DNA of 64,000 nucleotides from Candidatus Levyibacteriota bacterium (GCA_963790825.1 CAWBPM010000004.1:94987-158986), one strand, 5' to 3'. Shown: positions 16,448 to 38,894, counted from the stretch's first letter. The notes: generated by a model from the sequence alone, not told the origin. A program made the numbers and translations.

Positions 16448-16575
16448 TTAGAGATTCTATGCAATTCTAAAATTCATGGATAGTAAATTTACTAAAGCTT
16501 TTTTCATCACTCTCCTGGCAATTGCCCCTCCCCTCTCTTGACAACTCCCCGGAAATGTCCCACACTAGAGATATT

Positions 16576-18363
16576 ATGCGATCTGCCCTTGCGTATTTTA
16601 TGGGAAAAAAGTTCTTGTCTTTTTTGGCTGTCATTTTTTTTGCAGCTGTTTTTTTCTTCTCCCCAACATCCAGTTTTGCTCAAGCTACTGCTTCCTCTCA
16701 ACAGACCACACAGACACAAGCCGCAAACAATTATCTTTTCCCGAAAGTTGATCCGGGCGTTGAGCAGAATCAATCTACCTTTGTTCAAGCAATTTTCCTA
16801 GAATCGATGGCCGGAGTTATCTGTCAACTGGATGGAGTCGATCCCACCAATCCGACCCATGGCTGTTTAACGATTAATCCGCAGACACACGCCTTTACCT
16901 ATTCACCTCTCCCGCAAAATGGAAAAGTTGGCGGTCTCATAGGCTTCTCGACAGTTGCAATGGGCGGTCTATATACTCCTCCCGCCAGCAGCGGTGAGTA
17001 TTTTCGCGACTTGGCGTATAATTTCGGAATTGCCAAACCGGCTGAAGCATCCGGATTTGATCAACTGGTACCGCTTCTAAACATGTGGAAATTATCCAGA
17101 AACATTGCCTATCTCTTTCTGGTAATTGTATTCATTATTTTAGGCGTTATGATCATGCTTAGAGTAAAGGTAAATCCGCGGACCGTGATGACAGTGCAAA
17201 ACCAAATACCCAGAATTATTATCGGCATTCTCCTGATTACCTTCTCCTATGCAATCGCCGGACTACTGGTCGATGCGATGTGGGTTACCACTTATTTTGC
17301 GATTAATGAACTTTCAAATATTCCCCATGGCTCTGTCGGCGGAGGAGCAGCTACGGCAAGTATTCTAAACCATCCTCTTTCTTGGTTTAATGACGTCCTC
17401 AGCAATGCTCCAGTCCCTCCGGGCGCCTCCCGCGCGCCATACGACTGTGGCACTATTAACCTTCCGGGAGGAAGCATCCCCGTTAAAGGAATAGCGTGTC
17501 TTACGGGAAAAATAGGGGACAGTTTCACCACTCTTCTCTCAAATCTTATTTCACAAGTTACCGGATTTGATAATAATAATAAATGTAGTTTTACAGATCC
17601 CACGTCTTGGGTTACGGGGTGTTTATATAATTTTGTCTTCTGGCTTATACATTTCATCATAAATCTTATCATTCTTATTACTATAGTGATTCTCCTGTAT
17701 CGTGTTTGGTTTATGCTGCTTAAAGCTTACATACTTATTCTCATATACGTCGCAACAGGTCCCTTGTGGATTATTGCCGGCATGCTTCCGGGAAGTACTT
17801 TTGGTTTTATTCCTTGGATCAAGCGTCTTTTGGCGCACCTGCTGGTATTTCCCGGTGTTGTTGCGCTTATTATTTTCGGTTTGGATATTGCCTCATCTTT
17901 CTCGCAACAAACAGGGGGGACGAACGGGCTATTTATTCCTCCGCTGATTGGCAATGTCGCCAGTAACACTAGCCCTGTTGGTAATATCGGCTGGATGATC
18001 GCACTTGGCGTGCTGCTTTTAGCCCCTGAAGTCTTACAAATGCTGAAGGACGCATTCGGCTTAAAAAGAAATCCATACACCCCGGCAATCGCGCTCGGAC
18101 TGGCAGCGGGTGCTAATCCGCTCAACGCCGGAGCCAACGCAGGTTGGAGTAGACTGATGAGACCTGAGGATCAGATGCATAATGCAGGGGCAGCCAGACG
18201 GATGCTATTAACCGCTGCTAAACCAAGTACTACTGACAATAGATTCCAAAAGGTCGCAAGAGGCGTGTTAAAAACAGTGATAGTTCCAAATAAGTGGGAA
18301 ACAGGATCAAAGACAATACAACCACAACAACCTGTCCAAGGCCAAGGAGGAGGAACGCCATAA
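16576..18363 (+). CDS. VirB6/TrbL-like polytopic membrane protein with Sec signal peptide (putative T4SS inner-membrane channel component)
   Basis: Signal peptide MGKKFLSFLAVIFFAAVFFFSPTSSFA|QA, at least 6 TM helices in the central region, Gly/Ala/Pro-rich C-terminal tail. Track ORF starts at TTG 16522. Plausible ATGs at 16555, 16576 and 16600. Confidence 0.45.
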   Translation: MRSALAYFMGKKFLSFLAVIFFAAVFFFSPTSSFAQATASSQQTTQTQAANNYLFPKVDPGVEQNQSTFVQAIFLESMAGVICQLDGVDPTNPTHGCLTINPQTHAFTYSPLPQNGKVGGLIGFSTVAMGGLYTPPASSGEYFRDLAYNFGIAKPAEASGFDQLVPLLNMWKLSRNIAYLFLVIVFIILGVMIMLRVKVNPRTVMTVQNQIPRIIIGILLITFSYAIAGLLVDAMWVTTYFAINELSNIPHGSVGGGAATASILNHPLSWFNDVLSNAPVPPGASRAPYDCGTINLPGGSIPVKGIACLTGKIGDSFTTLLSNLISQVTGFDNNNKCSFTDPTSWVTGCLYNFVFWLIHFIINLIILITIVILLYRVWFMLLKAYILILIYVATGPLWIIAGMLPGSTFGFIPWIKRLLAHLLVFPGVVALIIFGLDIASSFSQQTGGTNGLFIPPLIGNVASNTSPVGNIGWMIALGVLLLAPEVLQMLKDAFGLKRNPYTPAIALGLAAGANPLNAGANAGWSRLMRPEDQMHNAGAARRMLLTAAKPSTTDNRFQKVARGVLKTVIVPNKWETGSKTIQPQQPVQGQGGGTP

Positions 18364-18400
18364 CCATAGTTTTCGCTACGTATCTTATACCTCTTTTTTA

Positions 18401-21400
18401 TTAAGTAGCAAGTTGTTCAGTCGTACTAGATAATCCTTTATAGAAGCTGGCGAATAAGGCCCCAAAGAAATCAAGCCATGATTCTCCTCGGGAAAATCTG
18501 GCCAGAAAATTCGCGCCAATCGGTTTTTCGACGTGTTTTTTCCACTGTTTCGCAGTAAGAAATCTGCCTTCGCGCACCTGAAGAGTCGCCTCATCATTAT
18601 TAATATTCTCTGTCACATATTTTTCGGGGCTTGTCATAAAAAACTCTCTGATCAGCTGGATCATGCCGTCAGAATATTTAGATACCGTGCTTTTTTTGTT
18701 AATATGCTCCAGGATATCCTGGCGTACAGTATACATAAGTATATTTTTGGCTAAATCAAATGAGCCGTCTGCACTCACCTTAGCCCGTTCGCTTCCCCAG
18801 ATTCTCCGCTCTTCCGGCGTTTGGCTATCCTGTACATTTTTTTCATCATATATTCCCATTTTCAGCAGTTCCGGTCCGAACATATGCTGAGCTACTGTAA
18901 TATCTTCAAATACCAAATCGCCTTTATGCTCTGGATCTTTCCTCCATGACCGTATCTTATGAGCATAGGGAATTTTCGTCATTTCTATATACCGGCAATT
19001 TTTATATATTTCACCCAAAACCTTTTCCCGAAAACCGGGTTCTACCACTAATCTTCCTAGGTAATCATAATGCAGGTTTTTTTCAAACTCAAAGCCCTGC
19101 CCATGCCGGATAAACTCTCCGAAATCGACCGCATTTAAAAAGTGGATGCCGGCATACCTATTTTCCGCGTCTCCTGGACACTCAAATTTCTGGTATTTCA
19201 TTTGCGTCAGATCAACTTCGCTTCCTTCTCCGCCCTGGAGCACCTCGGCAAGTGTTTTGGTAAAATCATCTCCCCCCAAGGGACGCATGCGAAGTGCATC
19301 AAACATGCTCAGCATAACATGCTTTAAGCCTCTCAGCGTTTGCGGATTGCCAATTTCGTTTTTATTTGTTTGGTTTTCACGAAAGGCTTGGAAATTCATA
19401 AATCTGGTCGGAGCAACAAAAGCCCTGGAGCCGGTTTCCTGCTTCGCGTCAACGATGAAATACTGAGCAAGGTTTTTTGCCCAACCTTTGGCATAGACAA
19501 CCTCGTCGCTGTCAAGTCTCAAGTTTTTACAGACTGCATCTGAAATCGCATCTTCGACATAAGTGGTTATGTCTTTGGGTATGTCAGCTTCGTTAAAGAT
19601 ATTTAGGTTTTCCAGTTTCAATCTCCCTTGCCCGTCAGTACTGCTTTTTGTTCCTAAAATAGCTAAAGCGAATTTTTCGTTATTAATTTTTTTGTTATTA
19701 CTGCCTTTTCCAAAACCGAAGTAGTCCCGGGGATCCTCAGTGACTCTTGACCCTCTTGTTCCTGGATTTAAATCTGCCAACTTACTGAGAAATTCCTCCT
19801 TAACACTATCCCTAACTGTTTTAGCATCTTCTTGTCTGATTTTATCTTTTTCCTCGTCTGTTAAGCGTGTCCTTTCTGCTCGTTCCCTTACGGCAATCCG
19901 CATCTCGGATAATTCCTTCATGCTGGCAAAGGTAATCTTAAATTCTCCTTCCCCAACCGCATCCTTTTTGGCTATTTCACCAATATACTCATCTACGATA
20001 AGCAGTCTCGACTCTAGGAGGGCATCGTCTTTAAATTTTTCTTCCGTCTTCTTTTTCTCTGCCTTAAGTATACCGAGAACATATTCTTTGTATTGCTGTT
20101 TATAGTAGACATTTGTGTCCATAATGCTGGCAGCCAACGATTGCCAGAAGACATCAATTCCCCGATCAATTACTACAGGCTCCAGATGCTTCTGTCCATG
20201 AGAGTCAGTAAGCTCGCGGTAGAGGACTCTCTTCTCTTTATACTCTGTACCCCGTTTTATGACCGTTCGCTGCTCCCGAACCAGCTTAACCAGTCCCTTT
20301 TCTGTAACTATCTTGCCCTTTTCCATAAGAACCGGTTCTAAATATTCCCCATCTGAAGATTGTACTTTCCGGTAAAGGGTCTCTTCTTTTTCCATTTTCT
20401 CTCCTTCTTTTACCTTTTCAGCGTCATCGCTAGCATAACCCAGCTCAATTAGTCCGTCCTGGGTAACCGTACCGTCGCCCAGAAGTTTTATAAATAGGTT
20501 CCTGTTCGTTACTGTCGGTCTGTTATCTTGACCGTAAATAATTTCTCCATTTTCCCCGTCTCCTCTTCTTTTATAGTTTTCTGCCCGCCGGAACGTATTA
20601 TGTGAGAGTTCTGACATCGCGTTAAACAAAAGTACCTGGGTTTGGATTGCCCGGCCGACTTCTCCTTGTACCTCATCTTCCGTATAATCCCGAAGTTCTC
20701 TTTTATCTCTTCTGGCTAGTTTCAGCATTCGAATACTCCTGGCGCTCTGATTAACATTTCCCGAATCGGTAAAAATGCTTTTTCTCGAGTGGGCCTGAAG
20801 TACTTCCATGTATTTTTTAATATCATTCCTGCCTGCCGTAAAAATATTCACTTGTTTATTGTGGGCAAGCGAGCGGAGCCAGGCCTCGTAGAGAAAGTTC
20901 ATTTTCATTTTCATAAACTCCGGGTCAACCTGAGTATCCCAGCTAGTTTTATAGACAACATTTCCCTCTTCATCTTTTAAAACCTTTTCCTTTTCATCTT
21001 TAACTTCTGCAATATGGACTCTTTTGCGTCTGGAATATTGGTTGATTTTGATCATTTCTAAAAGTGAGATTTGGGCAAAATAGGTAGGAACGCTGGTTAA
21101 AGACAGAAGGTCTACCTCGCTCATTCCGGCGGAAGCAATTTCCTCAACCGACCGCTTCCGAACCCAAGAGAGAAAATTATGGTACTGAATTTCGCCGCTG
21201 CTATCAACAATTTCATGCGATCCGCCGATGTGATATTCAGGTCCTGCATAGCTCATAAGTCGGAAGAGAAGTTGATCTAAATTTCTCGGCTGGACCTGAA
21301 AATCATACTCTTCGCTGTTTGGCGTATCATCTTTAAAGTATTTTTGTAAATCTAATGCTTCTATTTGTGTTGTTCTTTGTTTAAGCTGCTTAAGCGTCAG

Positions 21401-22753
21401 GCTGCTGGGATCTTCCTGCATAATCTCCTGGAATTGTTTTTGCATGTCGGGCGTGACGGTCTCAAGATGCCCCATATTTCGCCTGACATCCGTAATCCGC
21501 AGACGAAGACCATTATACTGGCGTCGCGCGTCGTCCAATAAACGACTCTGTTTTTCTATGGGGAATAAGTTATTATCTTCAATCTTTTTGATTTCTTCTA
21601 TTCTATATCTTACCTGCGCACCTAGAGACATACCGAAGATAACAGCATCTTCTTCTGTCATGTTGGCAATCCCCCGTCTCGCCGCCTCTGACGCGACATC
21701 CCCTCCTCGCATCGTTCCTGCCAGAAGCCTTGGCAACACATCGCGAAAAAAAGTATTCAATGCTTCTGTATCGACATTGCTGTCAATTAATGCATTAAAA
21801 TTATTTAAATGCGCCTCTACTCTTGGATCGGACAAATCCATTAACCTTCCGTCAAGTGCGCCGGTAATCCAAGCTCTTTTCATCGCCCTTGCACATTCGG
21901 ATTTTCTATCGGCAGGCGCCCTGAGAAATGCTTCCTGCAACCCTCGATTCAGGTCGCTAAGCCGCTCTTCTTCTGTCTGTCCCGCTGCTCCTCCTTGCTG
22001 CGATTTATTCAGTGTATCAGCAATTAGATCTTCATATCCTCGCGGCTGAGGAGGAATATTTGGATTAGAAGGATTCATTTGGAAAAATCCGGGCTCTAAT
22101 CCCCGATCTGTTTGCATAATGATTTCTGCTTGTCTTTGTATCTCCGGCGGAAGCACTCCCTGAAGTCTCTCTAAATCTTTAGGGGGTAATTGAGGTGTAA
22201 TCATCCTTGCTTGTTCACGCTTTTTATCTACTTCTCCAAAAAATTTGTCAACAGGAATCTCTTGACCTCTTACAGCCTTCATAATAAGTGTTCTAGCATC
22301 AATTGAAACACGCTCTAGCTCGGGATTTACTCTTTCAGCTTCTCTTTCTAACGGTGATTGCATTTGCAAATAGAGATCTGCAAGCGTACCCATATCTAGT
22401 GTTACTAGAGACGGATCTTCACTGGTTCTTTCCTTAAATGCTCTTAGTAAATATCTTGCTTCGGGGTCTCTAATATCACTCTCCTGTATGAGAATCGGGT
22501 GATCCGACCTAGGTTTTTCTTGAAGTTGTGTTTCTCGCCTACCCAGTTGTCCGTCTGCATTTCCTTCCTGCGCCATATTAATATCTCCTCTTAGTCTAGC
22601 ATAGCCTGCCTGAGGACGCGGTGTCAATTTAATAGGCATTTCCCCTTCAATACTCCTGAAGACTTCGGTTACATTTGGCGTAATAAGCCTCTCTCCTTCG
22701 ATGCGAGGCGTAAATGATTGCGTGCGAATTGGCATCCCTTCTTTCATAGCCAC
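18401..22753 (-). CDS. Giant (1450 aa) highly charged hypothetical protein, no signal peptide or TM helices
   Basis: Uninterrupted 4.35 kb ORF, Glu/Lys/Arg/Asp-rich, with an internal repeat LYRKVQSSDGEYLEPVLMEKG / LYRELTDSHGQKHLEPVVIDRG. No Walker motifs or known domains recognised. Confidence 0.6.
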   Translation of the reverse strand: MAMKEGMPIRTQSFTPRIEGERLITPNVTEVFRSIEGEMPIKLTPRPQAGYARLRGDINMAQEGNADGQLGRRETQLQEKPRSDHPILIQESDIRDPEARYLLRAFKERTSEDPSLVTLDMGTLADLYLQMQSPLEREAERVNPELERVSIDARTLIMKAVRGQEIPVDKFFGEVDKKREQARMITPQLPPKDLERLQGVLPPEIQRQAEIIMQTDRGLEPGFFQMNPSNPNIPPQPRGYEDLIADTLNKSQQGGAAGQTEEERLSDLNRGLQEAFLRAPADRKSECARAMKRAWITGALDGRLMDLSDPRVEAHLNNFNALIDSNVDTEALNTFFRDVLPRLLAGTMRGGDVASEAARRGIANMTEEDAVIFGMSLGAQVRYRIEEIKKIEDNNLFPIEKQSRLLDDARRQYNGLRLRITDVRRNMGHLETVTPDMQKQFQEIMQEDPSSLTLKQLKQRTTQIEALDLQKYFKDDTPNSEEYDFQVQPRNLDQLLFRLMSYAGPEYHIGGSHEIVDSSGEIQYHNFLSWVRKRSVEEIASAGMSEVDLLSLTSVPTYFAQISLLEMIKINQYSRRKRVHIAEVKDEKEKVLKDEEGNVVYKTSWDTQVDPEFMKMKMNFLYEAWLRSLAHNKQVNIFTAGRNDIKKYMEVLQAHSRKSIFTDSGNVNQSARSIRMLKLARRDKRELRDYTEDEVQGEVGRAIQTQVLLFNAMSELSHNTFRRAENYKRRGDGENGEIIYGQDNRPTVTNRNLFIKLLGDGTVTQDGLIELGYASDDAEKVKEGEKMEKEETLYRKVQSSDGEYLEPVLMEKGKIVTEKGLVKLVREQRTVIKRGTEYKEKRVLYRELTDSHGQKHLEPVVIDRGIDVFWQSLAASIMDTNVYYKQQYKEYVLGILKAEKKKTEEKFKDDALLESRLLIVDEYIGEIAKKDAVGEGEFKITFASMKELSEMRIAVRERAERTRLTDEEKDKIRQEDAKTVRDSVKEEFLSKLADLNPGTRGSRVTEDPRDYFGFGKGSNNKKINNEKFALAILGTKSSTDGQGRLKLENLNIFNEADIPKDITTYVEDAISDAVCKNLRLDSDEVVYAKGWAKNLAQYFIVDAKQETGSRAFVAPTRFMNFQAFRENQTNKNEIGNPQTLRGLKHVMLSMFDALRMRPLGGDDFTKTLAEVLQGGEGSEVDLTQMKYQKFECPGDAENRYAGIHFLNAVDFGEFIRHGQGFEFEKNLHYDYLGRLVVEPGFREKVLGEIYKNCRYIEMTKIPYAHKIRSWRKDPEHKGDLVFEDITVAQHMFGPELLKMGIYDEKNVQDSQTPEERRIWGSERAKVSADGSFDLAKNILMYTVRQDILEHINKKSTVSKYSDGMIQLIREFFMTSPEKYVTENINNDEATLQVREGRFLTAKQWKKHVEKPIGANFLARFSRGESWLDFFGALFASFYKGLSSTTEQLAT

Positions 22754-22818: not shown

Positions 22819-24231
22819 TTAGCTTACGAACTTAAAACCGCGGCCCTTTATGGTTATGAGATGGGCGGGAAGATTCGGATCGTCCTCAATTTTCTTTCTG
22901 ACTCTAAAGATAAGCTGATCTACTGCCTGATCCGTTACTCCGGCAGTAGAGCGAAACGCCGACCAGACAATCTGGATTATTTGCTCCCTGTCCACAATTT
23001 CATCCGGATGACTGAGGAGAAATTGCAGCAACCTAAATTCCGAACCGGTCAGCCGGTCTGAGAGAACTATCTTCCCTTTACGAATCGTATTGGTTGTGCT
23101 GTCATATGTTATTTGTTCATTTTGTGACGGCGTATTTCGCAGCTCCAAATCGAGAAGCACGCTAAAAAGCGGAATCTGTATTTTCCTTTCCTTGATAAAT
23201 CCGATATTGGAAAAGTAGGCTGCAGTAAGCTTGTCCTCTTCGTTACCCGGGAAATCACCGAGAATAAAACGCTGCTCTTCGGGAGAAAATGAGCGCCAGA
23301 TCTCCAAGAGTGCCCCCCGAACCGGCCGATGGGTACAAAGCCAGGATGCAAATTTCGTTCCTTTTGTCACCTCATTATTTTCAGTTTCCAAAACCGTTTC
23401 CATACACAGTCTGGTCAGCTTGCCGTGTCCCGCAGTCAGCTGCAAAATGCTAGTATAAAGAGACTCCGGCAATTTTTCCTCTGATACCTTTTCTAGATAC
23501 TCCGTCCTAAATTTCAGAAGCGACTTATCCTGAACATTCATATAGACAATATTTCCGGCTAAAAATTCATGAAACTCCGCAAAAAGTACCGGCTCTACTA
23601 TATCTTCAAGCGGTTTATTTAAAGAAAAAATGACTGAAAAACGGTATTTGGCCCGGTTACGAAGCACCCGAAGATTGGCAAAAAAATCCGAAGTTAGCAT
23701 CGGGACATATTCCTCGAACCGGTCAAAAAGGAAAACTATGGTCAACTCTTTTTCTATTGCCAGAAAATCAATCGCCCGTTTTAAACCCTGAAAGAGTACC
23801 AGCTCGTCCTCAAGAAGCAGACTTTCTTTGAAAATTTCAGTTACCGCCTGGTATTCTGTCAGCATACCTCGTTCTCTGAGAGAATCCGTCAAGGAAAGAA
23901 AAAGGAATTTTGTCACGTCGTAGAGATTTCGCCGTCTGACTTCTGAAAAACTAACAAGCATAAAGTGCATCCATTTCTCATTCTCTCCGAGATGTTTCTG
24001 CCTGCCTGCTTTGTTAAAAACCAGAAACTTCAGGAGATTTCCTCTACCAACTCCGGGTAGACCGACGAGCTCTACGGAACTTCCCCGTTGGATAAATTTC
24101 AATAAACCCGAGACTTCCTGAAAATAAGAATCTTCGGGGTAAAGCGATTCAAATCTGGTGGGTTCAATGGGTTGTGCTATTCTTTTTTGCATCATATATC
24201 TTATTGTACTGCGCCTCAAAGCTTTCTTCAA
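22819..24231 (-). CDS. Transcriptional regulator: N-terminal P-loop-like NTPase domain fused to a C-terminal OmpR/PhoB-type winged-helix DNA-binding domain
   Basis: C-terminus LTGSEFRLLQFLLSHPDEIVDREQIIQIVWSAFRSTAGVTDQAVDQLIFRVRKKIEDDPNLPAHLITIKGRGFKF matches trans_reg_C. N-terminal VGLPGVGRGNLLKFLVF is a glycine-rich loop lacking the canonical Lys. Divergent from the first pilin gene. Confidence 0.6.
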   Translation of the reverse strand: MKKALRRSTIRYMMQKRIAQPIEPTRFESLYPEDSYFQEVSGLLKFIQRGSSVELVGLPGVGRGNLLKFLVFNKAGRQKHLGENEKWMHFMLVSFSEVRRRNLYDVTKFLFLSLTDSLRERGMLTEYQAVTEIFKESLLLEDELVLFQGLKRAIDFLAIEKELTIVFLFDRFEEYVPMLTSDFFANLRVLRNRAKYRFSVIFSLNKPLEDIVEPVLFAEFHEFLAGNIVYMNVQDKSLLKFRTEYLEKVSEEKLPESLYTSILQLTAGHGKLTRLCMETVLETENNEVTKGTKFASWLCTHRPVRGALLEIWRSFSPEEQRFILGDFPGNEEDKLTAAYFSNIGFIKERKIQIPLFSVLLDLELRNTPSQNEQITYDSTTNTIRKGKIVLSDRLTGSEFRLLQFLLSHPDEIVDREQIIQIVWSAFRSTAGVTDQAVDQLIFRVRKKIEDDPNLPAHLITIKGRGFKFVS

Positions 24232-24259: not shown

Positions 24260-25102
24260 ATGGTTTATTCTGAATATATGAGAAAAATAGATTTACTTTT
24301 TATTATTCCACTTTTTCTACTGGCATTTTTACTGCTTTCCTCAGTTTCTTCAGCCGCCGACCCAACCGCCCCTCCAGCCCCAACAGCCGTACCTCCCACT
24401 CCCACCCCTACAAGATCTTTCACTATTTCAGTACAGCCTCCTGATGAAGTTCATATTACCCAAAGCGTTATTGTCACAGTAATTCAAGCTCCTCCTGACC
24501 ATCTGAGTGGAGGAGGTACATATAATATTCTTTTTATGCAATTAGATAATATACTGCAAAATTGCAATGGATTCTCCTGTGCCGGTTTTGGACCATTACA
24601 TTGTCCTACTGTTAGTTGTACATTTCCTCCCTATCAAGTTCTACTCGGTCCTGCCAGTATACTCATCATTCGTGTCACCTCTGCCGATACCGCCCCATAC
24701 GAAATAGATAAAGAGCTGACGATAAATGGCTCTGTCCCCACACCAACTAACGTTCCCACTTCTCCTACAGAAATTCCCCCCCCGCCTGCCTGCACTACTC
24801 CGGGTACCGGAGGAGAATGTGCTGGTGTCGACACCGCTATTGGACCGGCAAGCACCACGCCGAATGAATTGATCACTACTATTATGAGAATACTCCTTAG
24901 TATTTCAGGCGGTATCGCATTGCTTCTTTTAATCTATGCGGGTTATAAAATCCTCACTTCCCGCGGAAATCCTGAAACAGTAAAAGGCGCTCGGGAGCTG
25001 ATCACCTCGGCAATTGCAGGACTTCTCCTTATTATTCTCTCCCTGGTCATCCTGGAAGTACTGGGAGTTGACATATTGCACATCCCAGGATTTAGCCATT
25101 AG
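24260..25102 (+). CDS. Secreted protein with Pro/Thr-rich linker, globular domain and C-terminal VirB2/TrbC-like pilin domain
   Basis: Signal peptide, PTAPPAPTAVPPTPTPT linker, a Cys pair (PPPACTTPGTGGECAGVD), then SISGGIALLLLIYAGYKILTSRGNPETVKGARELITSAIAGLLLIILSLVILEV (two hydrophobic helices around a charged loop). Contains a C8 tract. Confidence 0.6.
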   Translation: MVYSEYMRKIDLLFIIPLFLLAFLLLSSVSSAADPTAPPAPTAVPPTPTPTRSFTISVQPPDEVHITQSVIVTVIQAPPDHLSGGGTYNILFMQLDNILQNCNGFSCAGFGPLHCPTVSCTFPPYQVLLGPASILIIRVTSADTAPYEIDKELTINGSVPTPTNVPTSPTEIPPPPACTTPGTGGECAGVDTAIGPASTTPNELITTIMRILLSISGGIALLLLIYAGYKILTSRGNPETVKGARELITSAIAGLLLIILSLVILEVLGVDILHIPGFSH

Positions 25103-25135
25103 AAAAGTAAACTCTACTTGCATTTCACCCGAATA

Positions 25136-26353: not shown

Positions 26354-26374
26354 TTGAGTATATATAATAATTCT

Positions 26375-26692
26375 ATGCAAAAACTCTTAGCTTTATCTCT
26401 TCAAGGAACACCGATTGCAGCCCCCGGTAACGTTCCCACCGGCGGATTATCGCCAAATGGTTGGAATATTATCTATACGGGAATCTCTATTTTTCTCCTT
26501 ATTATAGTGGCTCTGGCTCTCATATTTCTCATTTGGGCGGGCATCAGGCTTACCATGTCGGAAGGAGATAAGGCAAAGGTTGATGCATCGAGAAAGCAGG
26601 CAATCTACTCCATAGTCGGACTCGTTATCGCCCTTTTGGCATTTGCCATTATAAATATCGTCGGCAATCTGTTTGGAGTACAGTTGTTCTGA
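26375..26692 (+). CDS. Small VirB2/TrbC-like pilin
   Basis: IYTGISIFLLIIVALALIFLIWAGIRLTMSEGDKAKVDASRKQAIYSIVGLVIALLAFAIINIV: two TM helices flanking a charged loop. Track start 26354 is TTG. ATG at 26375 is preceded by a TATATAAT -10-like box. Confidence 0.55.
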   Translation: MQKLLALSLQGTPIAAPGNVPTGGLSPNGWNIIYTGISIFLLIIVALALIFLIWAGIRLTMSEGDKAKVDASRKQAIYSIVGLVIALLAFAIINIVGNLFGVQLF

Positions 26693-28405: not shown

Positions 28406-28825
28406 ATGAGTACACAATTAAAAAAATTTGCAATCATTTCCTCAACAGTAGTACTTTACACATTAGCTGCTTCCCAGACTTTTGCTGCTGGTGCTGCTAG
28501 CTTTGGATCGGGGTGTAATGGTAGTTTTAGTGCTCTTTGCGGTAACAGCGCATCATTTGCTACTATCTTTAGTTGGGTTGTTAATCTCTTGTTCTTTGCT
28601 GCAATCGCAATTGCGCTTATCTTCTTAATTTGGAATGGTATTCGCTGGATTCTTTCCGGTGGAGATAAAGGAAAAGTTGATGAGGCAAGAAAAGGTGTTA
28701 TTGCAGCTCTGATTGGGCTTGTGGTTGCACTTGTTGCCTATTTCATCATCAATCTTGTATTAAATCTCTTGGGACTGGGTGGACTAAATTCTCTTAGTGT
28801 TCCCTCTATTACTCTTCTCTCTTAG
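28406..28825 (+). CDS. VirB2/TrbC-like pilin with signal peptide
   Basis: Signal peptide FAIISSTVVLYTLAASQTFA, Cys pair (SGCNGSFSALCGNS), then LLFFAAIAIALIFLIWNGIRWILSGGDKGKVDEARKGVIAALIGLVVALVAYFIINLV. Confidence 0.6.
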   Translation: MSTQLKKFAIISSTVVLYTLAASQTFAAGAASFGSGCNGSFSALCGNSASFATIFSWVVNLLFFAAIAIALIFLIWNGIRWILSGGDKGKVDEARKGVIAALIGLVVALVAYFIINLVLNLLGLGGLNSLSVPSITLLS

Positions 28826-28966
28826 TCTTTTTAGTTCTTAATTCTAACTTCTCTTCTTTATTGTAAGTTCTTCTACTCGTGATTGCGCTTGCCGCCCTGC
28901 CATAATTCGCTTTATTTATAGTAAGTTATATTCCTAAAAGCATATTTTTATGACATAATTTAGCAA

Positions 28967-30154: not shown

Positions 30155-30753
30155 ATATTGTACCTTTACCCAATAATCATTGCTATACTTTAGAAATAAT
30201 GATTGTCTTCAAATTCTTAATCATTGCTTTTCTCCTCCTCGTCGCAGCGATTCCCCTAGCGCTTATCGCTGCTTTCTTCTTCGGACCACCCTTCATTCCG
30301 ACCCCTAAAAAAACAGTAAAAGAAATGGTTGCGCTTGCCGGTATTTATAAAGGGGATACAGTACTGGACATGGGCTCTGGAGACGGCAGAATGCTCCTAG
30401 AAGCAGCGAAATGCGGAGCACGCGCAGTTGGCTGGGAAATTAATCTCTACCTTGTTTTATGGACAAAAATATTAGCATATCGTTATGGCGTTAATAGACT
30501 AGTAGAAGTCCATTGGGGAAGCTACTATCAGGCGGATTTTTCAAAAGCAAATGTCGTCTTTCTCTATGGTATTACTCACGAAATGGAAAAAATTGAACAG
30601 AAACTGCAAAAAGAGTTAAAACCTGGATCGAAAGTTATTTCTTATACGTTTGTTTTCCCGCATCTCAAGCCGACTAAAACCCTTTCCGAAAATTACTGTC
30701 TATACTATCGCCTGATTTCTTTCCTGCTATTATACTTATTGTATTTTATTTAA
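30142..30753 (+). CDS. Class I SAM-dependent methyltransferase with N-terminal TM anchor
   Basis: Motif I VLDMGSGDGRML, then an acidic post-I loop (AVGWEIN). N-terminal hydrophobic helix FLIIAFLLLVAAIPLALIAAFFF. Confidence 0.65.
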   Translation: MDRIDIVPLPNNHCYTLEIMIVFKFLIIAFLLLVAAIPLALIAAFFFGPPFIPTPKKTVKEMVALAGIYKGDTVLDMGSGDGRMLLEAAKCGARAVGWEINLYLVLWTKILAYRYGVNRLVEVHWGSYYQADFSKANVVFLYGITHEMEKIEQKLQKELKPGSKVISYTFVFPHLKPTKTLSENYCLYYRLISFLLLYLLYFI

Positions 30754-32612: not shown

Positions 32613-33254
32613 ATGAATACACCTGTCCAAAAAATTCACGCTTCAACGCAAAAGTTTACTGAAATTCAGGATATTTTTGATACCGTGGTGATACTAAACG
32701 GCGGTAATGCCTGCTTAGTTATCGAAGTTACTGCCAGTAACTTTGCTCTCTTATCCAGACAAGAGCAGGATATGAAAATCTTTTCCTATGCTTCGCTGTT
32801 AAATTCTTTAACCTTTCCGATTCAAATACTTATCAGAAACGAAAAGGTCGATATTACGTCCTACTTAAAGTCTCTTGAGGAAGCTGAGAAAAACACTCAA
32901 AACTCCCTGCTTCGCAAAAATATTGGCTTCTACCGGAATTTTATCAAAGAAATGATTTTGGTCAATACGGTTCTCAATAAACGGTTCTATATTGTTCTTA
33001 ACTTTTCCTCTCTGGAGGCAGGACCTACCGGCGTAAGCTTGACCGATAAAGTAAATTTCGCCCGGGTTGCCAAAAAAATGCTTGAGTCCAAGGCAGATTC
33101 CCTGCTTCCTGAGCTGCAAAAAATTTCTTCTTCCTCAAGGGTACTAGAGAAAGATGAGCTGGTAAAACTTTTTTATGAAATTTTCAATCACGAAGCAGTT
33201 GATGCTACTCAGGTAGCAGCAGATATAAAAGTGCCGATTATTACTAGTCATTAG
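32613..33254 (+). CDS. Hypothetical T4SS-associated protein (resembles the non-ATPase N-terminal region of VirB4/TrbE proteins)
   Basis: 213 aa with no TM helices. DTVVILNGGNACLVIEVTASNFALLSRQEQDMKIFSYASLLNSLTFPIQILIR is reminiscent of the VirB4 N-terminal domain. Translationally coupled (2-nt gap) to the PrgI-like gene. Confidence 0.4.
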   Translation: MNTPVQKIHASTQKFTEIQDIFDTVVILNGGNACLVIEVTASNFALLSRQEQDMKIFSYASLLNSLTFPIQILIRNEKVDITSYLKSLEEAEKNTQNSLLRKNIGFYRNFIKEMILVNTVLNKRFYIVLNFSSLEAGPTGVSLTDKVNFARVAKKMLESKADSLLPELQKISSSSRVLEKDELVKLFYEIFNHEAVDATQVAADIKVPIITSH

Positions 33255-33275: not shown

Positions 33276-35345
33276 ATGAAATTATTTGGAAAGAAAACAA
33301 CAGCGGAAACGACAAAAGCAAATTCCACAACTGACGGAAAGGGCGTTAAGCAGTTGGAAAAGGGAACCGTGTCTTTGGTAGATATTATTGCTCCGTCTTC
33401 AATTGAAGTAGATTTTAGATTTATCCGGGTTGGAGAAACATTTTATACAACTCTTTTTATCGTTGGTTATCCGAGATTCGTCTCCCCCAGCTGGCTTGAG
33501 CCGCTTATCGACTTTGACCATACGCTGGATATCTCAATGTTTGTTTATCCAACGTCAGGAGCCGACGTACTTACGGATTTACGGCGTAAGATCGGCGAAA
33601 TGGAGGCAACGCTCATGTCGGACGCAGAAGCAGGAAAACAGGAAGATCCGACAGTTGCAGCAGCCCTAGAAGATGCGAAGTCGCTCCAGGAAGAACTGGC
33701 TAAGGGTATTGAGCGTTTTTTTCAATTTAGCTTTTATATTAAAATCTCTTCAGACAATATCATTGATCTACACGATACAACCAAAAGGCTGAAAACGACA
33801 CTCTCCTCTCTCCTTTTAACCGCCAAAAATGCAACCTTGCAAATGGAGGAAGGTTTTAAATCAACCATGCCGCTGGGCTCTGACAAGCTTTATATGCCGC
33901 GAAATATGGATACCACGTCTCTCGCTTCCACGTTTCCTTTTACTTCGGCAATTTTAACCCAGAACAAGGGCGTCATGTATGGTCTTAACCAGCAAAACGG
34001 TTCGCTCATTATCTTTGACCGGTTCTCTCTGGAAAACGCCAATGAGGTTGTGTTGGGAAAATCGGGCGCAGGGAAATCGTACCTTATTAAACTTGAAATT
34101 ATGCGCCAATTTATGTTGGGAGCCGAGGTATTTGTGATCGACCCTGAGGGAGAATATGGAACGCTGGCACAGGGACTAGGCGGTGAGACAGTGGAATTTA
34201 GCCCAAACGCACCGGTTAAGATAAATCCGTTCGATCTTTCAGAGCTGTACGAGGAGGGTGAGAATGAACTGGGGCTAAAAATTCTTTCGCTTCATGGGCT
34301 ACTTAAAATTATCATGGGTGAACTTGACGCCGAACACGATGCAATCTTAGACCGGGGTATTATCGAGACATATCGACAAATGGGAATCACAACCGATCCG
34401 GAAACGCAGAAACGTACACCACCGCTTCTTGAGGATTTATATAAAACACTTTTGGGCTATGAGTCGGCACCAGCCCGCGATTTGGCGTACAGGCTTGAAA
34501 AATTTATCAAGGGTTCTGCTGCCGGCATTTTTAATCAGAGATCAAATTTTGATATTACTAATCCTTTGACTGTTTTCAGTATTAAAAATTTAGAAGAAGA
34601 GCTCCGCCCGGTTGCCATGCATATCATCCTCGATTTTATCTGGACCAAAGTGAAGCGGTCGCTTAAAAAAAGAATTTTAGTTCTGGACGAGGCATGGTAT
34701 ATGATGAAATATGAGGATTCTGCATCTTTTGTCTATTCAATTGCCAAACGGGCCAGGAAATATTATCTTGGATTAACAACCGCTACGCAGGATGTTGAGG
34801 ATTTTTTAGGGACCGACTACGGAAAGGCAGTGCTAACAAATTCATCTATTCAAATGTTATTAAAGCAAAGTGGTGCCGGAGTTGATCTGGTTTCAGATAC
34901 ATTCTTTTTATCGGAGGGTGAAAAAGAATTATTACTATCGGCAGATATAGGAGAAGGGTTATTTTTCGCTGGGCAAAATCATGTTGCAATAAAGGTAGTT
35001 GCAGCGCCATTTGAACATGAGTTTATTACCTCAAATCCGGCAGAACTTCTAAAAAGGCAGCAAGCAGGACTTGCGCAAGTTACCCAACCACAACCACTAC
35101 AACAACAGATGCCCCAACAACCACCAGCCAATCCTCTATCATCATCTAATCAAACCCCACCTATCCGTCCGACATATATGGGTCAGGCACCGACAAACAA
35201 TACGATGGGAGGCTATCCGATGCAGACCGGCCAATCTACTCCGAATCAACAAATACCGCAGAATAATACTCCCCCCCAGACTCAATCTCAATTACCAGGA
35301 CAGCCCCTACCACCTCAACCTCCTCCATCTTTACCTAACCACTGA
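33276..35345 (+). CDS. virB4: VirB4/TrbE/PrgJ-family type IV secretion ATPase
   Basis: Gram-positive-type VirB4 N-terminus (IAPSSIEVDFRFIRVGETFYTTLFIVGYPRFVSPSWLEPLI), Walker A VLGKSGAGKSYL, Walker B ILVLDEAWYMM, and a Pro/Gln-rich low-complexity C-terminal tail. Confidence 0.8.
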   Translation: MKLFGKKTTAETTKANSTTDGKGVKQLEKGTVSLVDIIAPSSIEVDFRFIRVGETFYTTLFIVGYPRFVSPSWLEPLIDFDHTLDISMFVYPTSGADVLTDLRRKIGEMEATLMSDAEAGKQEDPTVAAALEDAKSLQEELAKGIERFFQFSFYIKISSDNIIDLHDTTKRLKTTLSSLLLTAKNATLQMEEGFKSTMPLGSDKLYMPRNMDTTSLASTFPFTSAILTQNKGVMYGLNQQNGSLIIFDRFSLENANEVVLGKSGAGKSYLIKLEIMRQFMLGAEVFVIDPEGEYGTLAQGLGGETVEFSPNAPVKINPFDLSELYEEGENELGLKILSLHGLLKIIMGELDAEHDAILDRGIIETYRQMGITTDPETQKRTPPLLEDLYKTLLGYESAPARDLAYRLEKFIKGSAAGIFNQRSNFDITNPLTVFSIKNLEEELRPVAMHIILDFIWTKVKRSLKKRILVLDEAWYMMKYEDSASFVYSIAKRARKYYLGLTTATQDVEDFLGTDYGKAVLTNSSIQMLLKQSGAGVDLVSDTFFLSEGEKELLLSADIGEGLFFAGQNHVAIKVVAAPFEHEFITSNPAELLKRQQAGLAQVTQPQPLQQQMPQQPPANPLSSSNQTPPIRPTYMGQAPTNNTMGGYPMQTGQSTPNQQIPQNNTPPQTQSQLPGQPLPPQPPPSLPNH

Positions 35346-35367
35346 ATTTCTGCTACCATAATCATAT

Positions 35368-36858
35368 ATGGACAATAAAGACAGTTCCAAACCCCAAACA
35401 CCATCCGCAAATAAAACATCACAATCCTCATCCGTATCTAAAATGGCACGTGGAGTTTCGGGAGTAAGAAATGTCCAGCAAGTGTTAAGAGCCAAAGATA
35501 TGGAGCAAGCAGCGGAAGAGTTGGTAAAACTTTTAATTAAACGGTTCGTTGTTTTTAATCCGTATGTTTGGATAGCTGCAGGAGCTGTTATATTAATCAT
35601 CCTCTTTATCGTCGCTATGGTAATTATTATTGAGGGAGGATATTGTTACCTAAAAAACAAGGCTGAAAACGTGTTCGTCCTCGGTGGCTTAGTAAGTATC
35701 GTTGATAGCTGGGCAGATATGCCTGATTGTAAAACCGGAATTACTATTCCGGGAACAGGGACTGGAACCGGCACGGGAACAGGGACTGGAACCGGCACGG
35801 GAACAGGGACTGGAACCGGCACGGGAACAGGGACTGATCCTGTATCTCAAATGACAATTAAAAAGACAGATAATAAAAATGGGGCAACCTCTAACGGCAC
35901 CCAAATCACCTATACTATTACTGTTACCTATCCGCCTGCCATTCAAACTTTTTCAGTCGTCGATACGCTTCCTCCAACAACGCAGGCAACTTTAAATGAT
36001 GACGGTAGTGGCGCTCATGTCGATAATAGCTATACCTGGACAGTTGTTAACCCTAATAATACCGGTACCACAAATCTTACTGCTACATTTACACTCAAAT
36101 TAACTCCTAAGGTTTCAGATATCTATTTGGTAAATAACGCTTCTATCAACGGCGCCGTAGCCGCAGCTACCACCACCTCTCCCCCCGGGGGAGGAACCCT
36201 AACGGGGAATATCGCTCAACTTTTTCCTAATACACTACCCCCTGACCCTTCAGGTGTAGACCAGATAAAAGCTGGGGTACTGAGTGCAGTCAATCCGAAT
36301 ATACAAGTATATAAAGACGCCGAAGCGGCCACTGGTGTTCCTTGGCAAGTGTTGGCTGGACTTCATTATAGAGAAGGTGGGGCCGCTTCCAATGCTTCTC
36401 TTGTTAGCGGCAGGATAATAGGAAATGATGAACCTGACATTGACGCTAACAATCCATGTCTCCAAAGCACGCCGATAGGCGTTGCAGACGGTCTTGCTGA
36501 GCCGCTTCCCGGTGGGGGTTGTGGATTCAGCTCTCTTCTTGATTCAGCTATATATGCAGGTAATTGGCTAAAACGTGGTATTGGTGGGAATATCACTTCT
36601 TTTCAAGATCTGGTTCATGCTTTTGCGGCATATAATGGAATCCCTGGTAACGCCAACTGCGGAAGAGGTGTTCCCTACACCAACTGTCCTGCTCCTTTTG
36701 TTGGTGATGATAACCCATATGCTATGAACCTTTTTGACGCTAATCATACGCCTATGTTTATCATCTATTGTGGAGATGGAAGCCTTTGTTCGCCCGCACC
36801 TCAAGATACTCGTCCTGGAGCAGCTACCGTAACTAAATGGGTTGCAACATCTCTGTAG
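35368..36858 (+). CDS. Membrane-anchored surface protein: TM helix, (Gly-Thr)13 repeat, Ig-like/DUF11-like domain, C-terminal lysozyme-like (SLT-like) domain
   Basis: TM WIAAGAVILIILFIVAMVIII, PGTGTGTGTGTGTGTGTGTGTGTGTGTDP, TYTITVTYPP...TFTLKL beta-rich segment. C-terminal GVPWQVLAGLHYREGG and FAAYNGIPGNA resemble the catalytic Glu region and AYNxG motif of soluble lytic transglycosylases. Confidence 0.45.
   Translation: MDNKDSSKPQTPSANKTSQSSSVSKMARGVSGVRNVQQVLRAKDMEQAAEELVKLLIKRFVVFNPYVWIAAGAVILIILFIVAMVIIIEGGYCYLKNKAENVFVLGGLVSIVDSWADMPDCKTGITIPGTGTGTGTGTGTGTGTGTGTGTGTGTGTDPVSQMTIKKTDNKNGATSNGTQITYTITVTYPPAIQTFSVVDTLPPTTQATLNDDGSGAHVDNSYTWTVVNPNNTGTTNLTATFTLKLTPKVSDIYLVNNASINGAVAAATTTSPPGGGTLTGNIAQLFPNTLPPDPSGVDQIKAGVLSAVNPNIQVYKDAEAATGVPWQVLAGLHYREGGAASNASLVSGRIIGNDEPDIDANNPCLQSTPIGVADGLAEPLPGGGCGFSSLLDSAIYAGNWLKRGIGGNITSFQDLVHAFAAYNGIPGNANCGRGVPYTNCPAPFVGDDNPYAMNLFDANHTPMFIIYCGDGSLCSPAPQDTRPGAATVTKWVATSL
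35751..35838 (+). repeat. Tandem repeat, 24-bp unit GGGAACAGGGACTGGAACCGGCAC x about 3.6, encoding (Gly-Thr)13
   Basis: Directly visible as GGGAACAGGGACTGGAACCGGCAC repeated in tandem three times plus a partial copy. Confidence 0.7.
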
Positions 36859-36883
36859 TTTATCTATAGTAAAAGTAGGTATT

Positions 36884-37468
36884 ATGAATAATCAAAAGAA
36901 TCTCTTGTTTTTCTTTTATGGTCTTGCTTTTCTCGTTCTTGCTTGTATTATCTTATATATTTTTTTTATTGGCTCTCACCATTCTATAAAAAACCCATCT
37001 ATACAACCCGTTGAGACAGTTACTTCATTTCCTTCGCAAGGCACAAATAACATTAACCCCCCATCTTTTAAATCAATTCCAACAACCCCCCCCAGTCAAG
37101 GGGGAGGTATTAGTGAAAATTCTCCAATCTTACTTGCTTCAAAAGCAGAAATACAAAAGATCTATCTCTACCTACCTTATAAAATTGATTATCAATTATC
37201 CACGGGTATTAGTGTATCTGTAATTATTCCAGGAAGAGACCTGCAGCTCAATCCTTGGAGTCTAACTGTTCAAATTGAAAATATTAATTATAATACCTCT
37301 TCTACCCAACCTGACTACGAACAAATGAAAGCTTCATTTATCCAGGCTGCGGGCAATGTATTTGGATGGATTGAGCAAAAGGGAGCTGATCCAAAAAAAA
37401 TTCTCTTTGTTTGGTCTAATAAGAAATACGCACAAGAGCAAGCAGAAAGCTGGTTGATCTCACAATAA
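36884..37468 (+). CDS. Hypothetical secreted/membrane-anchored protein
   Basis: Track ORF 36842 starts at TTG, trimmed to ATG (MNNQKNLLFFFYGLAFLVLACIILYIFF). Contains a C8 tract encoding TPPS. Confidence 0.45.
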   Translation: MNNQKNLLFFFYGLAFLVLACIILYIFFIGSHHSIKNPSIQPVETVTSFPSQGTNNINPPSFKSIPTTPPSQGGGISENSPILLASKAEIQKIYLYLPYKIDYQLSTGISVSVIIPGRDLQLNPWSLTVQIENINYNTSSTQPDYEQMKASFIQAAGNVFGWIEQKGADPKKILFVWSNKKYAQEQAESWLISQ

Positions 37469-37476
37469 ATTAGATT

Positions 37477-38169
37477 ATGCGAAAACACTGCTTAAAAACA
37501 TTTTATTCTTTTAATAGTTGCCTCCTGGTTCTTGTTTTTTTTCTTACCCTTGCGTTTCCGCAGAATCTTGCTTTTGCGCAAAATCAAGCTACTACTTGTA
37601 CAAAAATTGGGTCTCCGGTAGGGAGTCCGCCAGCCGGATGTGGTGGTGGATCGAGCGATATGGCTAGCGCTGCAAACGCCTTAATTAATCTAATAGTCAG
37701 CAAATGTGGTGGGAGTTATTCCTCGGGCAACGAGACATGTATTTCTGTCAACGACTTGACGATGTTCAAGTATCCTATTGATGCCTATACCGATATTACT
37801 GCTTCTGTAAATTCTTACACATTTCTTCAATGTGTTGGTTTTGTAAATACAGTTACAGCAGGTATGTTTCAACAAGGACTAAAAGAAATAGATGCTCGGG
37901 GTAGCGCCGCAGCTTATGCCAGCACTAACGCCCCTCCTGGATATGTGTATGTTGATAAAAATAGTGGTACAATAAAGCCAGGAGATATTCCTGTTTGGAC
38001 AGATAATGGCGTTGATTCTAATGGACACATCGCAATTGCAATTAGTGTTCTTGACTCTGATCATTTTGTTATAGCAGAAGCCAATGGATTCAATGGTCAT
38101 GTAGCAAATACTAGAAATATTCAAACAAGCACAGAATATGGCTTAGCTGGTTGGCTAGAAAAACTATGA
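37477..38169 (+). CDS. Secreted CHAP-domain peptidoglycan hydrolase (cysteine, histidine-dependent amidohydrolase/peptidase)
   Basis: Signal peptide plus catalytic Cys context FLQCVGFVNTVTAGMF and His context NGHIAIAISVLDSDHFVIAEAN typical of CHAP domains. Adjacent to the SLT-like protein, mirroring the SLT+CHAP hydrolases of Gram-positive conjugation systems. Confidence 0.6.
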   Translation: MRKHCLKTFYSFNSCLLVLVFFLTLAFPQNLAFAQNQATTCTKIGSPVGSPPAGCGGGSSDMASAANALINLIVSKCGGSYSSGNETCISVNDLTMFKYPIDAYTDITASVNSYTFLQCVGFVNTVTAGMFQQGLKEIDARGSAAAYASTNAPPGYVYVDKNSGTIKPGDIPVWTDNGVDSNGHIAIAISVLDSDHFVIAEANGFNGHVANTRNIQTSTEYGLAGWLEKL

Positions 38170-38894
38170 TGTATTCAAAAACTAAATTATTATTGTTTTA
38201 CTCGCTCATTGCACTGATATTTATTCTAGTAGTAGGTATGTTTTTGATCCTTAGAAATAAAAAAAATGGTCAAACGCAACCGGGTAACCAAAATGGTTTT
38301 GTAACAATCACCCCTTTCCCAACAAACGGAATTCAACATTTGTCGATTATAAAAACCACCCCACTAGACAAGGCCATAAATATTCCACTGAGCTCAGATA
38401 TCTTTATCACATTTAACAGCTCACAACAAATTAATCAGGTTACAGTTAACGCTGTCCCAGCAATTCAATACACTCAATCAATCTTAGGAAATACGCTAGT
38501 ACTCACACTTTCTCAAGTCCTTCAATCAAACACTAAATATCAAATATCCACTAGTCTTCCTGGTGGCTCGCCATATACTTTTTCTTTTACAACTATCGGT
38601 AATACAATTACTCCGTCTCCCGATACGAGAGATACAAATTTATTTAATAAGATTAAGGCAAACGAAAGAGAAAAATCTCCCGATGTGTATGTTTCCAACA
38701 ATTCTCCCTATCACAACCAAGACTTCTCAATAAGTTATAATTTTGTTTCTGGAACACCCACGGGTCATTTTCACTTCACTGTAATTTTATTAAATCCGGA
38801 TAAAAACGTCGTACAGGCAAGTTTCATCAACTGGCTAAAATCACTTGATATGACAGATGAACAAATACAACGCCTTGATATCACGTATCAATAA
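38166..38894 (+). CDS. Hypothetical membrane-anchored secreted protein
   Basis: Track ORF starts at TTG 38151. ATG (MMYSKTKLLLFYSLIALIFILVVGMFLIL) overlaps the CHAP gene stop (ATGA). Beta-rich Thr/Ser/Asn-rich body. Confidence 0.45.
   Translation: MMYSKTKLLLFYSLIALIFILVVGMFLILRNKKNGQTQPGNQNGFVTITPFPTNGIQHLSIIKTTPLDKAINIPLSSDIFITFNSSQQINQVTVNAVPAIQYTQSILGNTLVLTLSQVLQSNTKYQISTSLPGGSPYTFSFTTIGNTITPSPDTRDTNLFNKIKANEREKSPDVYVSNNSPYHNQDFSISYNFVSGTPTGHFHFTVILLNPDKNVVQASFINWLKSLDMTDEQIQRLDITYQ

Follow-up and report, generated by a model that had tools for sequence, protein, structure and literature searches.

Organization of the locus

We analysed a stretch of 64,000 nucleotides (64 kb) from a Candidatus Levyibacteriota genome (GCA_963790825.1, CAWBPM010000004.1:94987-158986), called the window below, in which positions 16522-38894 encode a type IV secretion system (T4SS) next to the replication-origin genes. 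The gap between this interval and dnaN is 308 bp. An initial annotation, made from the sequence alone, had described a Gram-positive-style T4SS beside dnaA. Indeed, Pfam and NCBIfam searches found VirB4, pilins, PrgI and a CHAP hydrolase in the interval, and Pfam placed dnaN (39203-40318) and dnaA (40568-41977) directly downstream. The genes on which the interpretation depends are as follows.

16600..18363 (+): divergent VirB6/TrbL-like polytopic membrane protein, 587 amino acids (aa) from M27; the open reading frame (ORF) opens at 16522
18401..22753 (-): large soluble protein, 1450 aa; conserved family, no Pfam domain
22819..24231 (-): regulator, 470 aa; degenerate P-loop-like N-terminal domain and OmpR/PhoB winged helix (Trans_reg_C, 63.6 bits)
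24260..25102 (+): VirB2-like pilin 1; PF18895 33.7 bits; transmembrane hairpin 207-265
25118..26353 (+): VirB2-like pilin 2; PF18895 26.5 bits, 0.1 under the cut-off
26354..26692 (+): VirB2-like pilin 3; PF18895 32.3 bits
28406..28825 (+): VirB2-like pilin 4; PF18895 36.9 bits
30775..31095 (+): VirB2-like pilin 5; PF18895 34.3 bits
31262..32611 (+): PrgI/VirB3-like membrane protein, 449 aa; PrgI (PF12666) 27.1 bits, cut-off 27
32613..33254 (+): TrsD-like protein, a detached VirB4 N-terminal domain, 213 aa; NCBIfam and pSK41 TrsD matches
33276..35345 (+): VirB4 ATPase, C-terminal motor part with a Pro/Gln-rich tail; NCBIfam conju_CD1110, PDB 4ag5, Walker motifs
39203..41977 (-): dnaN and dnaA; Pfam; replication-origin context

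A VirB4 scan over a set with one genome per species gave 221 relatives. The best 80 of these (63-79% identity, mostly labelled Candidatus Levy(i)bacteria or Patescibacteria) supplied the related loci for all comparisons below, which were made by tBLASTn and iterated hidden Markov model (HMM) searches. By the labels of these relatives, the window belongs to Microgenomatia.

VirB4 and its partners

The VirB4 call of the initial annotation held, with a score above the model threshold: the protein matched conju_CD1110 with 380.6 bits (cut-off 325), at profile positions 178-734 only. Among Pfam models it matched P-loop_TraG (88 bits), DUF87 and AAA_10, and the match to the solved VirB4 C-terminal domain (PDB 4ag5) had an E-value of 4.6e-44. 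Both nucleotide-binding motifs are intact, with GKSGAGKS as Walker A and ILVLDE as Walker B.

The match to the CD1110 profile begins at position 178 because the N-terminal domain is here a separate protein, encoded by the TrsD-like gene. This protein aligned with positions 8-200 of the 201 positions of the NCBIfam TrsD model (NF041427) at E 2e-5, with a score of 24.5 bits that is far under the cut-off of 200. In the VirB4_plasma profile (NF045975) it covers positions 101-279 (E 3.9e-7), while the VirB4 gene covers 292-893. Matches between the TrsD-like family profile and pSK41 TrsD were reciprocal (1.6e-7 and 1.9e-7); a profile-profile comparison of the family with the VirB4 N-terminus of its own lineage was not significant. 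Since the two proteins match successive parts of one VirB4 profile and the first is homologous to TrsD, VirB4 is split into two polypeptides, as in pSK41/pGO1. The TrsD-like gene is present in 78 of the 80 related loci.

The PrgI/VirB3 homologue is unusually long for its kind: the PrgI part continues into a linker rich in Pro and Gln and then, at the C-terminus, into a CarboxypepD_reg-like beta-sandwich (29.2 bits, under the cut-off). This extended architecture has full-length homologues in 77 of the 80 related loci.

The VirB6-like protein

The ORF of the VirB6-like gene has 613 codons' worth of protein (613 aa), and an identical protein of 587 aa exists in a public collection; the true start is probably M27, at 16600. 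The protein has a signal-like N-terminus and at least five transmembrane segments. The initial annotation had called it VirB6-like, which stands with respect to its relatives and its predicted fold and not with respect to a direct Pfam match. Pfam TrbL/VirB6 (PF04610) was matched by 13 of 44 close relatives, with the best E-value at 1.3e-7. The AlphaFold2 model (predicted local distance difference test score, pLDDT, 73) had R388 TrwI/VirB6 chains as all of its nine top PDB matches, with probabilities up to 0.99.

The family was detected upstream in 19 related loci, and its HMM gave no match to pSK41 TrsL. Together, the relatives and the modelled fold indirectly support a VirB6/TrbL identity for the predicted protein.

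The pilin array

The five VirB2-like pilins of the initial annotation were recovered, four above the T4SS_pilin (PF18895) cut-off of 26.6 bits and the fifth 0.1 bit below it. All five pilin domains have the two-helix hairpin, and their pairwise identity varies from 25 to 65%, the upper value being that of pilin 2 to pilin 1.

Pilins 1 and 2 (24260-26353) are built differently from a bare hairpin: an N-terminal extracellular domain of ~190 aa in pilin 1 and ~330 aa in pilin 2 is followed by a Pro/Thr linker and then by the hairpin. Relatives retain the hairpin alone (coverage 0.2-0.33), and the variable heads may serve adhesion or be removed by cleavage.

Conserved order and native position

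We observed that the related loci have one gene order in common: VirB6-like, large antisense ORF, regulator, pilins, PrgI, TrsD-like and VirB4, then a variable block of bitopic surface proteins and hydrolases, and then dnaN, dnaA, rnpA, yidC and jag. All 38 loci with full flanks keep this order, with dnaN-dnaA downstream of virB4. The median identity to the window protein decreased from 71.5% for VirB4 to 53% for TrsD-like, 48.5% for the regulator, 41% for PrgI, 35% for VirB6-like and about 27% for the large protein.

The GC content of the T4SS core (0.41-0.44) equals that of the remaining window. With native base composition and with order and position fixed among relatives, the T4SS is therefore native and vertically inherited, and neither a recent island nor a decaying integrative conjugative element. 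GC content and synteny were the grounds on which we dismissed a recent-island origin of the core.

With respect to the VirB4 clade, the best curated model is the prototype family of the mating-pair formation class MPF_FATA, and each of the 80 closest relatives comes from a genome that is labelled as, or syntenic with, Patescibacteria/Levybacteria. As a side observation, many public records of metagenome-assembled genomes with this Levybacteria-type locus (L004, L005, L006, L009, L024 and others; among them OZ246394.1, a chromosome of 1.6 Mb) have 'uncultured Gammaproteobacteria bacterium' as their title, probably a labelling error at the source.

The minimum of the cumulative GC skew is near 40 kb, at dnaN/dnaA. 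DnaA boxes are unclustered, with one perfect box at 42021. Promoter and terminator scans gave no excess over the shuffled expectation; the best promoter-like site of the region, 28342-28371, is ahead of pilin 4.

Absence of a conjugation module from the window

The initial annotation had seen neither a VirD4-type coupling ATPase nor a relaxase, and this was borne out. None of the sizeable ORFs of the window matched families of coupling proteins (VirD4, the type IV coupling protein or T4CP), relaxases or integrases, and a six-frame search of the window with pSK41 TrsK/VirD4 and the Nes relaxase returned nothing. A complete conjugative module next to the locus, which would have spoken for conjugation, is thus missing from the window for want of a T4CP and a relaxase. 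Likewise, the 80 related loci had no T4CP or relaxase within 10 kb of virB4, and no match to TrsK there.

The large antisense protein and the regulator

The initial annotation had treated the 1450-aa protein as an orphan and had described it and the regulator as embedded in the locus. Neither description can be kept: both genes are conserved members of the locus in this lineage and not intrusions, and the large protein belongs to a family with synteny in related loci. A HMMER scan with residues 360-1450 over 1.84 billion representatives gave 91 clusters, 58 of them at E <= 1e-10. Family members vary from 285 to 2021 aa, are mostly about 900-1700 aa long, and have two conserved blocks in common.

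Members of the family were seen in 21 related loci; in each, the gene is antisense, with the VirB6-like gene on one side and the regulator on the other. Slot and strand are kept in 20 of the 27 loci that have enough upstream sequence. Five of the other seven loci were looked at, and each has one single antisense ORF of 895-1237 aa in the slot, one of which is weakly detectable as a family member.

The 1450-aa protein has no transmembrane segment, signal peptide or Walker motif, and no Pfam domain was found in any of 37 family members. A confident model of residues 360-1450 (pLDDT 79.5; predicted template modelling score 0.82) was compared with the PDB by Foldseek, which returned nothing beyond generic helical bundles (best E 0.8). 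It evolves much faster than the motor, as identity between genomes is about 27%, compared to about 72% for VirB4. Because of its position and its rate of change, it is a candidate T4SS substrate or lineage-specific accessory factor, and the best local candidate for either. Tentatively, and with less than even confidence, we suggest that this soluble family of 900-1700 aa is a substrate specific to Levybacteria/Microgenomatia that is delivered to the host cell, or else a new cytoplasmic part of the machine that replaces the missing coupling protein.

The regulator, previously read as a divergent ATPase/winged-helix protein, retains the second half of this description. Its family profile matched RegX3/PhoB in the PDB at E 1e-13, a match that is convincing for the winged helix only. 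The supposed ATPase half has a degenerate P-loop, a Walker-A-like GLPGVGR(S/G) with Arg for the Walker Lys, and this substitution is conserved across the family. The regulator was present in 36 related loci, on either strand.

Surface proteins, wall hydrolases and cargo genes

Between virB4 and dnaN the following genes were found.

35368..36858 (+): bitopic surface protein, 496 aa; transmembrane segment, (Gly-Thr)n linker, DUF11/CnaB-like domain, C-terminal domain
36842..37468 (+): small bitopic membrane protein, 208 aa; one transmembrane segment, 25-43
37477..38169 (+): secreted CHAP-domain peptidoglycan hydrolase; CHAP 35.8 bits, cut-off 26
38151..38894 (+): bitopic protein with a Big_5 immunoglobulin (Ig)-like domain; Big_5 29.1 bits, cut-off 23.6

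The two wall hydrolases of the initial annotation fared differently. The CHAP protein was confirmed (35.8 bits); its match holds a Cys (FLQCVG) and a His (NGHIAI) that fit the catalytic pair of the family, and it matched PHROG endolysin families at E 3.5e-6. By its domain, it counts as a VirB1-like peptidoglycan hydrolase. The SLT-like assignment of 35368-36858 found no link in Pfam, the PDB or profiles. In this 496-aa protein, models of DUF11 and of an isopeptide domain both matched under the cut-off, and the C-terminal domain had no relative among Pfam, PDB sequences or SLT-type profiles. Comparison of this domain by hhalign with the SLT-type C-termini of its own family was also negative. 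We found 20 homologues of the domain that have no Pfam domains, one of which is called 'lysozyme family protein' by the Joint Genome Institute.

The family of the 496-aa protein comes directly after virB4 in 43 related loci, and the C-termini of 30 aligned members include SLT (6), glucosaminidase, M15 peptidase or SLT_3 domains. The protein is thus plausibly the positional equivalent of the wall-hydrolase fusions of its relatives, and a wall-hydrolase role is plausible by position only. Its (Gly-Thr)n linker is encoded by a perfect tandem repeat (24 bp x 3.6, at 35750-35836), and the length of the linker could change in frame by slippage.

The 208-aa protein matched no family model and had a homologue in just one related locus. 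Its size and topology suit a candidate VirB8/PrgL-like part. The family of the Big_5 protein was seen in 27 related loci, between virB4 and dnaN.

Three further genes interrupt the pilin array.

26998..28281 (+): polytopic membrane protein, about 9 transmembrane segments, variable cargo; no family match
28967..30154 (+): polytopic membrane protein, about 11 transmembrane segments, genome-specific cargo; PMT_2 E 0.012, under the cut-off
30142..30753 (+): membrane-anchored S-adenosylmethionine methyltransferase-like protein, genome-specific cargo; several methyltransferase Pfam models, under the cut-off

Homologues of the first were present in just 5 of the 80 related loci, and those of the second, weakly GT-C/PMT_2-like protein and of the methyltransferase-like protein in none (0/80 each). 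Other related genomes have different cargo at the pilin/PrgI junction. The local GC content at 28967-30154 is 0.355. Modification of pilins or of the envelope is a possible role for the cargo at 26998-30753.

Functional interpretation

Wang et al. (2023) found that the T4SS cluster SEML1_0006-0019 is essential for epibiotic growth of Southlakia epibionticum. The cluster has an essential pilin series and is without recognisable coupling or relaxase proteins; the authors suggested protein export or some other role for the system, in place of DNA transport (PMC10633639).

We consider it probable that the window locus is a chromosomal, vertically inherited T4SS of the 'Patescibacteria clade', derived from monoderm MPF_FATA conjugation machinery in a Levybacteria-like (Microgenomatia) genome, and that it serves host contact by protein export and/or pilus attachment, not conjugation. 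The non-conjugative role proposed by the initial annotation agrees with what the literature has concluded for this type of system (PMC10633639, PMC12102498, PMC12857230), so that its interpretation was correct in substance and restates published work.

From what is known of VirB and Trs systems, VirB4 hexamers would dock, in the membrane, on VirB3 and VirB6, and would pull pilins out of the membrane for polymerisation as a pilus or conduit. This structure would cross the peptidoglycan where it is opened by the hydrolases, and the winged-helix regulator would control the adjoining pilin operon. By analogy with the work on Saccharibacteria, the machine may serve contact between the bacterium and its host, by protein export and/or pilus-mediated attachment.

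Several points weigh against this interpretation. The VirB6-like protein itself has no Pfam or NCBIfam match, and its fold matches are weak, with E-values of 0.01-0.3 and template-modelling scores of 0.32-0.44. The PrgI score is right at its threshold (27.1 versus 27 bits), and pilin 2 is just under that of PF18895. A VirB8-like (NTF2-fold) part was not identified in the locus by sequence searches against Pfam and NCBIfam. Only position and rate of change tie the 1450-aa protein to secretion. The lack of VirD4 and relaxase holds for these 64 kb, and distant copies of either are conceivable; VirD4-like genes are common among Patescibacteria genomes (PMC12102498). Moreover, the function assigned to a Microgenomatia locus would be carried over from a different class.

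Four other explanations were weighed. An organelle for pilus assembly and adhesion only, with VirB4 used for pilin polymerisation alone and no substrate translocated, would suit the five divergent pilins, two of which have large variable N-terminal surface domains, as well as the lack of a coupling protein to recruit substrates; the variable Ig-like and DUF11 surface proteins also fit adhesion. We regard it as unlikely, given that a VirB6-like channel component is kept and conserved, that the locus has a gene for a large, conserved soluble protein with no export signal, and that candidate phyla radiation (CPR) bacteria already adhere by type IV pili (PMC12857230).

A working system for conjugation or DNA export, with coupling protein and relaxase encoded elsewhere on the chromosome, appears improbable. 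Its MPF_FATA ancestry is conjugative, as seen from the CD1110-family VirB4 and the collinearity with pSK41 trs, and most Patescibacteria genomes have VirD4-like genes, as a rule at a distance from virB4 (PMC12102498). However, neither the 64 kb nor the stretches up to 10 kb from virB4 in 80 related species yielded a relaxase or T4CP, relaxases are present in just 103 of 3,035 Patescibacteria genomes (PMC12102498), and the locus, unlike a mobile element, has the same fixed place next to dnaA from species to species. In addition, the text of PMC12102498, citing Wang 2023, gives the distant t4cp homologue of S. epibionticum as non-essential and the other T4SS genes as essential.

We assign an equally low probability to a DNA-uptake device like Helicobacter ComB or archaeal Ced, which would feed the cell with host DNA or nucleotides. 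CPR bacteria are without nucleotide synthesis (PMC12857230), a ComFC-like gene (2470-3423) is in the same window, and VirB4 has weak similarity to the CedB/CedD models. The CedB score (58 bits, cut-off 700), however, is that of generic VirB4 homology, and no DNA-binding or DNA-processing domain of the uptake kind was found in the locus by Pfam and NCBIfam scans. In S. epibionticum, deletion of comEC ends competence and not viability, whereas the T4SS is essential (PMC12857230); the essential role of the T4SS is therefore not ComEC-linked uptake.

Finally, a decaying remnant of an integrated conjugative element with no present function, which the locally missing relaxase and T4CP and the unrelated cargo genes within the pilin array might suggest, is hardly credible in view of core genes that are all intact, VirB4 Walker motifs that are kept, order and position that dozens of species have in common (VirB4 identity 63-79%), native base composition, and no integrase family matched by the window ORFs.

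Flanking regions of the window

The window is otherwise ordinary chromosome, with genes for a Mur ligase, a NUDIX protein, seven tRNAs, dnaN, dnaA, rnpA, yidC, jag, pgk, fba, a class I aminoacyl-tRNA synthetase, ruvCAB and dnaG; a sigma-70 gene also begins in it. An Rfam scan of the window matched only the seven tRNAs.

Immediately upstream of the T4SS locus, the GC content is low in 9700-16447 (0.29-0.32 versus about 0.42). The genes of this cluster encode glycosyltransferases (GT2 and two GT4), a PglD-like acetyltransferase and a DegT aminotransferase, and the cluster looks like a horizontally acquired surface-sugar island.

Seven tRNA genes, five for tRNA-Ser and two for tRNA-Arg, are located within 6 kb (3254-9115). 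For the tRNA-Ser at 3780-3865, ARAGORN gave the anticodon ACT; an A at position 34 is unusual in a tRNA-Ser. Another tRNA-Ser, predicted at 3254-3344, is overlapped by the ComFC-like gene on the opposite strand (2470-3423, minus strand), whose product has a double zinc ribbon and a phosphoribosyltransferase domain, as in competence proteins of this kind. In the ABY1 class, comF was reported near T4SS genes (PMC12102498).

An open frame on the minus strand (3-2489) is cut off by the left end of the window; its more than 829 aa gave no Pfam match. The N-terminus of its product (…AGQSLIELLL…) is similar to a type IV prepilin leader; to judge by this sequence, the product may be a giant pilin-like protein.

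Comparison with known systems

Bordetella Ptl and Brucella VirB are effector T4SSs that are relaxase-free or T4CP-free. They secrete proteins and do so with no coupling protein (PMC12102498, PMC12857230), and in the window, too, no coupling protein or relaxase was found. On the other hand, both belong to the diderm MPF_T systems and have an outer-membrane core complex (VirB7, VirB9, VirB10) that is absent in the window. The CTn2 conjugative transposons of Clostridia (CD1110-family VirB4) provided the best curated VirB4 model match, over its cut-off; unlike CTn2, the window has no integrative or conjugative module.

The trs operon of pSK41/pGO1 (Staphylococcus, the MPF_FATA subclass with TrsD) has a collinear core: a small pilin-like protein (CagC family), TrsC/VirB3, TrsD, TrsE/VirB4, a membrane protein and a CHAP hydrolase. 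It also has a TrbL-family protein, and its TrsD and TrsE are detectably homologous to window proteins. In contrast, pSK41 is a plasmid with TrsK/VirD4, a topoisomerase, SSB and the Nes relaxase, none of which is in the window. There is one pilin-like gene in pSK41 compared to five in the window, and the VirB6-like gene is about 15 kb upstream of virB4, while the pSK41 counterpart is at the operon end.

The locus resembles most of all what has been published on Patescibacteria. Quinonero-Coronel et al. (2025) found VirB4 in 2,417 of 3,035 Patescibacteria genomes, as a clade nested in MPF_FATA, with TrsD and PrgI adjoining virB4 and with VirB2 arrays of 2-11 genes that are especially abundant in Microgenomatia; dnaA, dnaN and rnpA were enriched near virB4 in Microgenomatia and Paceibacteria, and VirB6 homologues were scarce in Microgenomatia, where divergence was suspected (PMC12102498). 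A 2025 review lists the Patescibacteria systems as a new T4SS type (PMC12857230).

Like the T4SSs of this clade, for example that of S. epibionticum ML1 (PMC10633639, PMC12102498), the window locus is chromosomal and adjoins dnaA/dnaN/rnpA, has a VirB4 of probable MPF_FATA descent with TrsD-like and PrgI/VirB3 neighbours, a divergent PF18895 pilin array and wall hydrolases downstream of virB4, and has no relaxase or coupling protein nearby. The earlier opinion, which saw a partial likeness to described systems in gene content and order, thus gives way: the pilin array, TrsD, PrgI and the proximity of dnaA/dnaN/rnpA fit the published Patescibacteria T4SS, and the core is collinear with pSK41 trs. 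A relaxase-free, origin-adjacent T4SS of this kind was already described in 2023-2025, and the window is a further example, not a discovery. The idea of a system that is relaxase-free, origin-adjacent and pilin-rich was already in print, and the window adds nothing to it.

The Patescibacteria T4SS is, to our knowledge, the only T4SS reported to be essential for the growth of its bearer. What the window gives is a well-resolved Levybacteria version, with a gene order that is fixed across dozens of species. It belongs to a class (Levybacteria/Microgenomatia) other than that of S. epibionticum. Its pilin array, unlike the published ones, is interrupted by membrane proteins and a methyltransferase. 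Also unlike the published systems, the stretch between the VirB6-like gene and the pilins has a large, conserved antisense ORF and a regulator of the OmpR type; searches in the text of PMC12102498 found neither.

Three handles on the system follow. The first is a syntenic, divergent VirB6-like family in a group where the survey found VirB6 scarce; on the strength of relatives and modelled folds, it would fill the survey gap for Levybacteria and be modestly new. The second is the conserved OmpR-type regulator beside the pilin operon, and the third the large, fast-evolving soluble protein without a known fold relative, both of which may be modestly new. This large protein is a concrete candidate to test as a T4SS substrate, and the one lead worth following.

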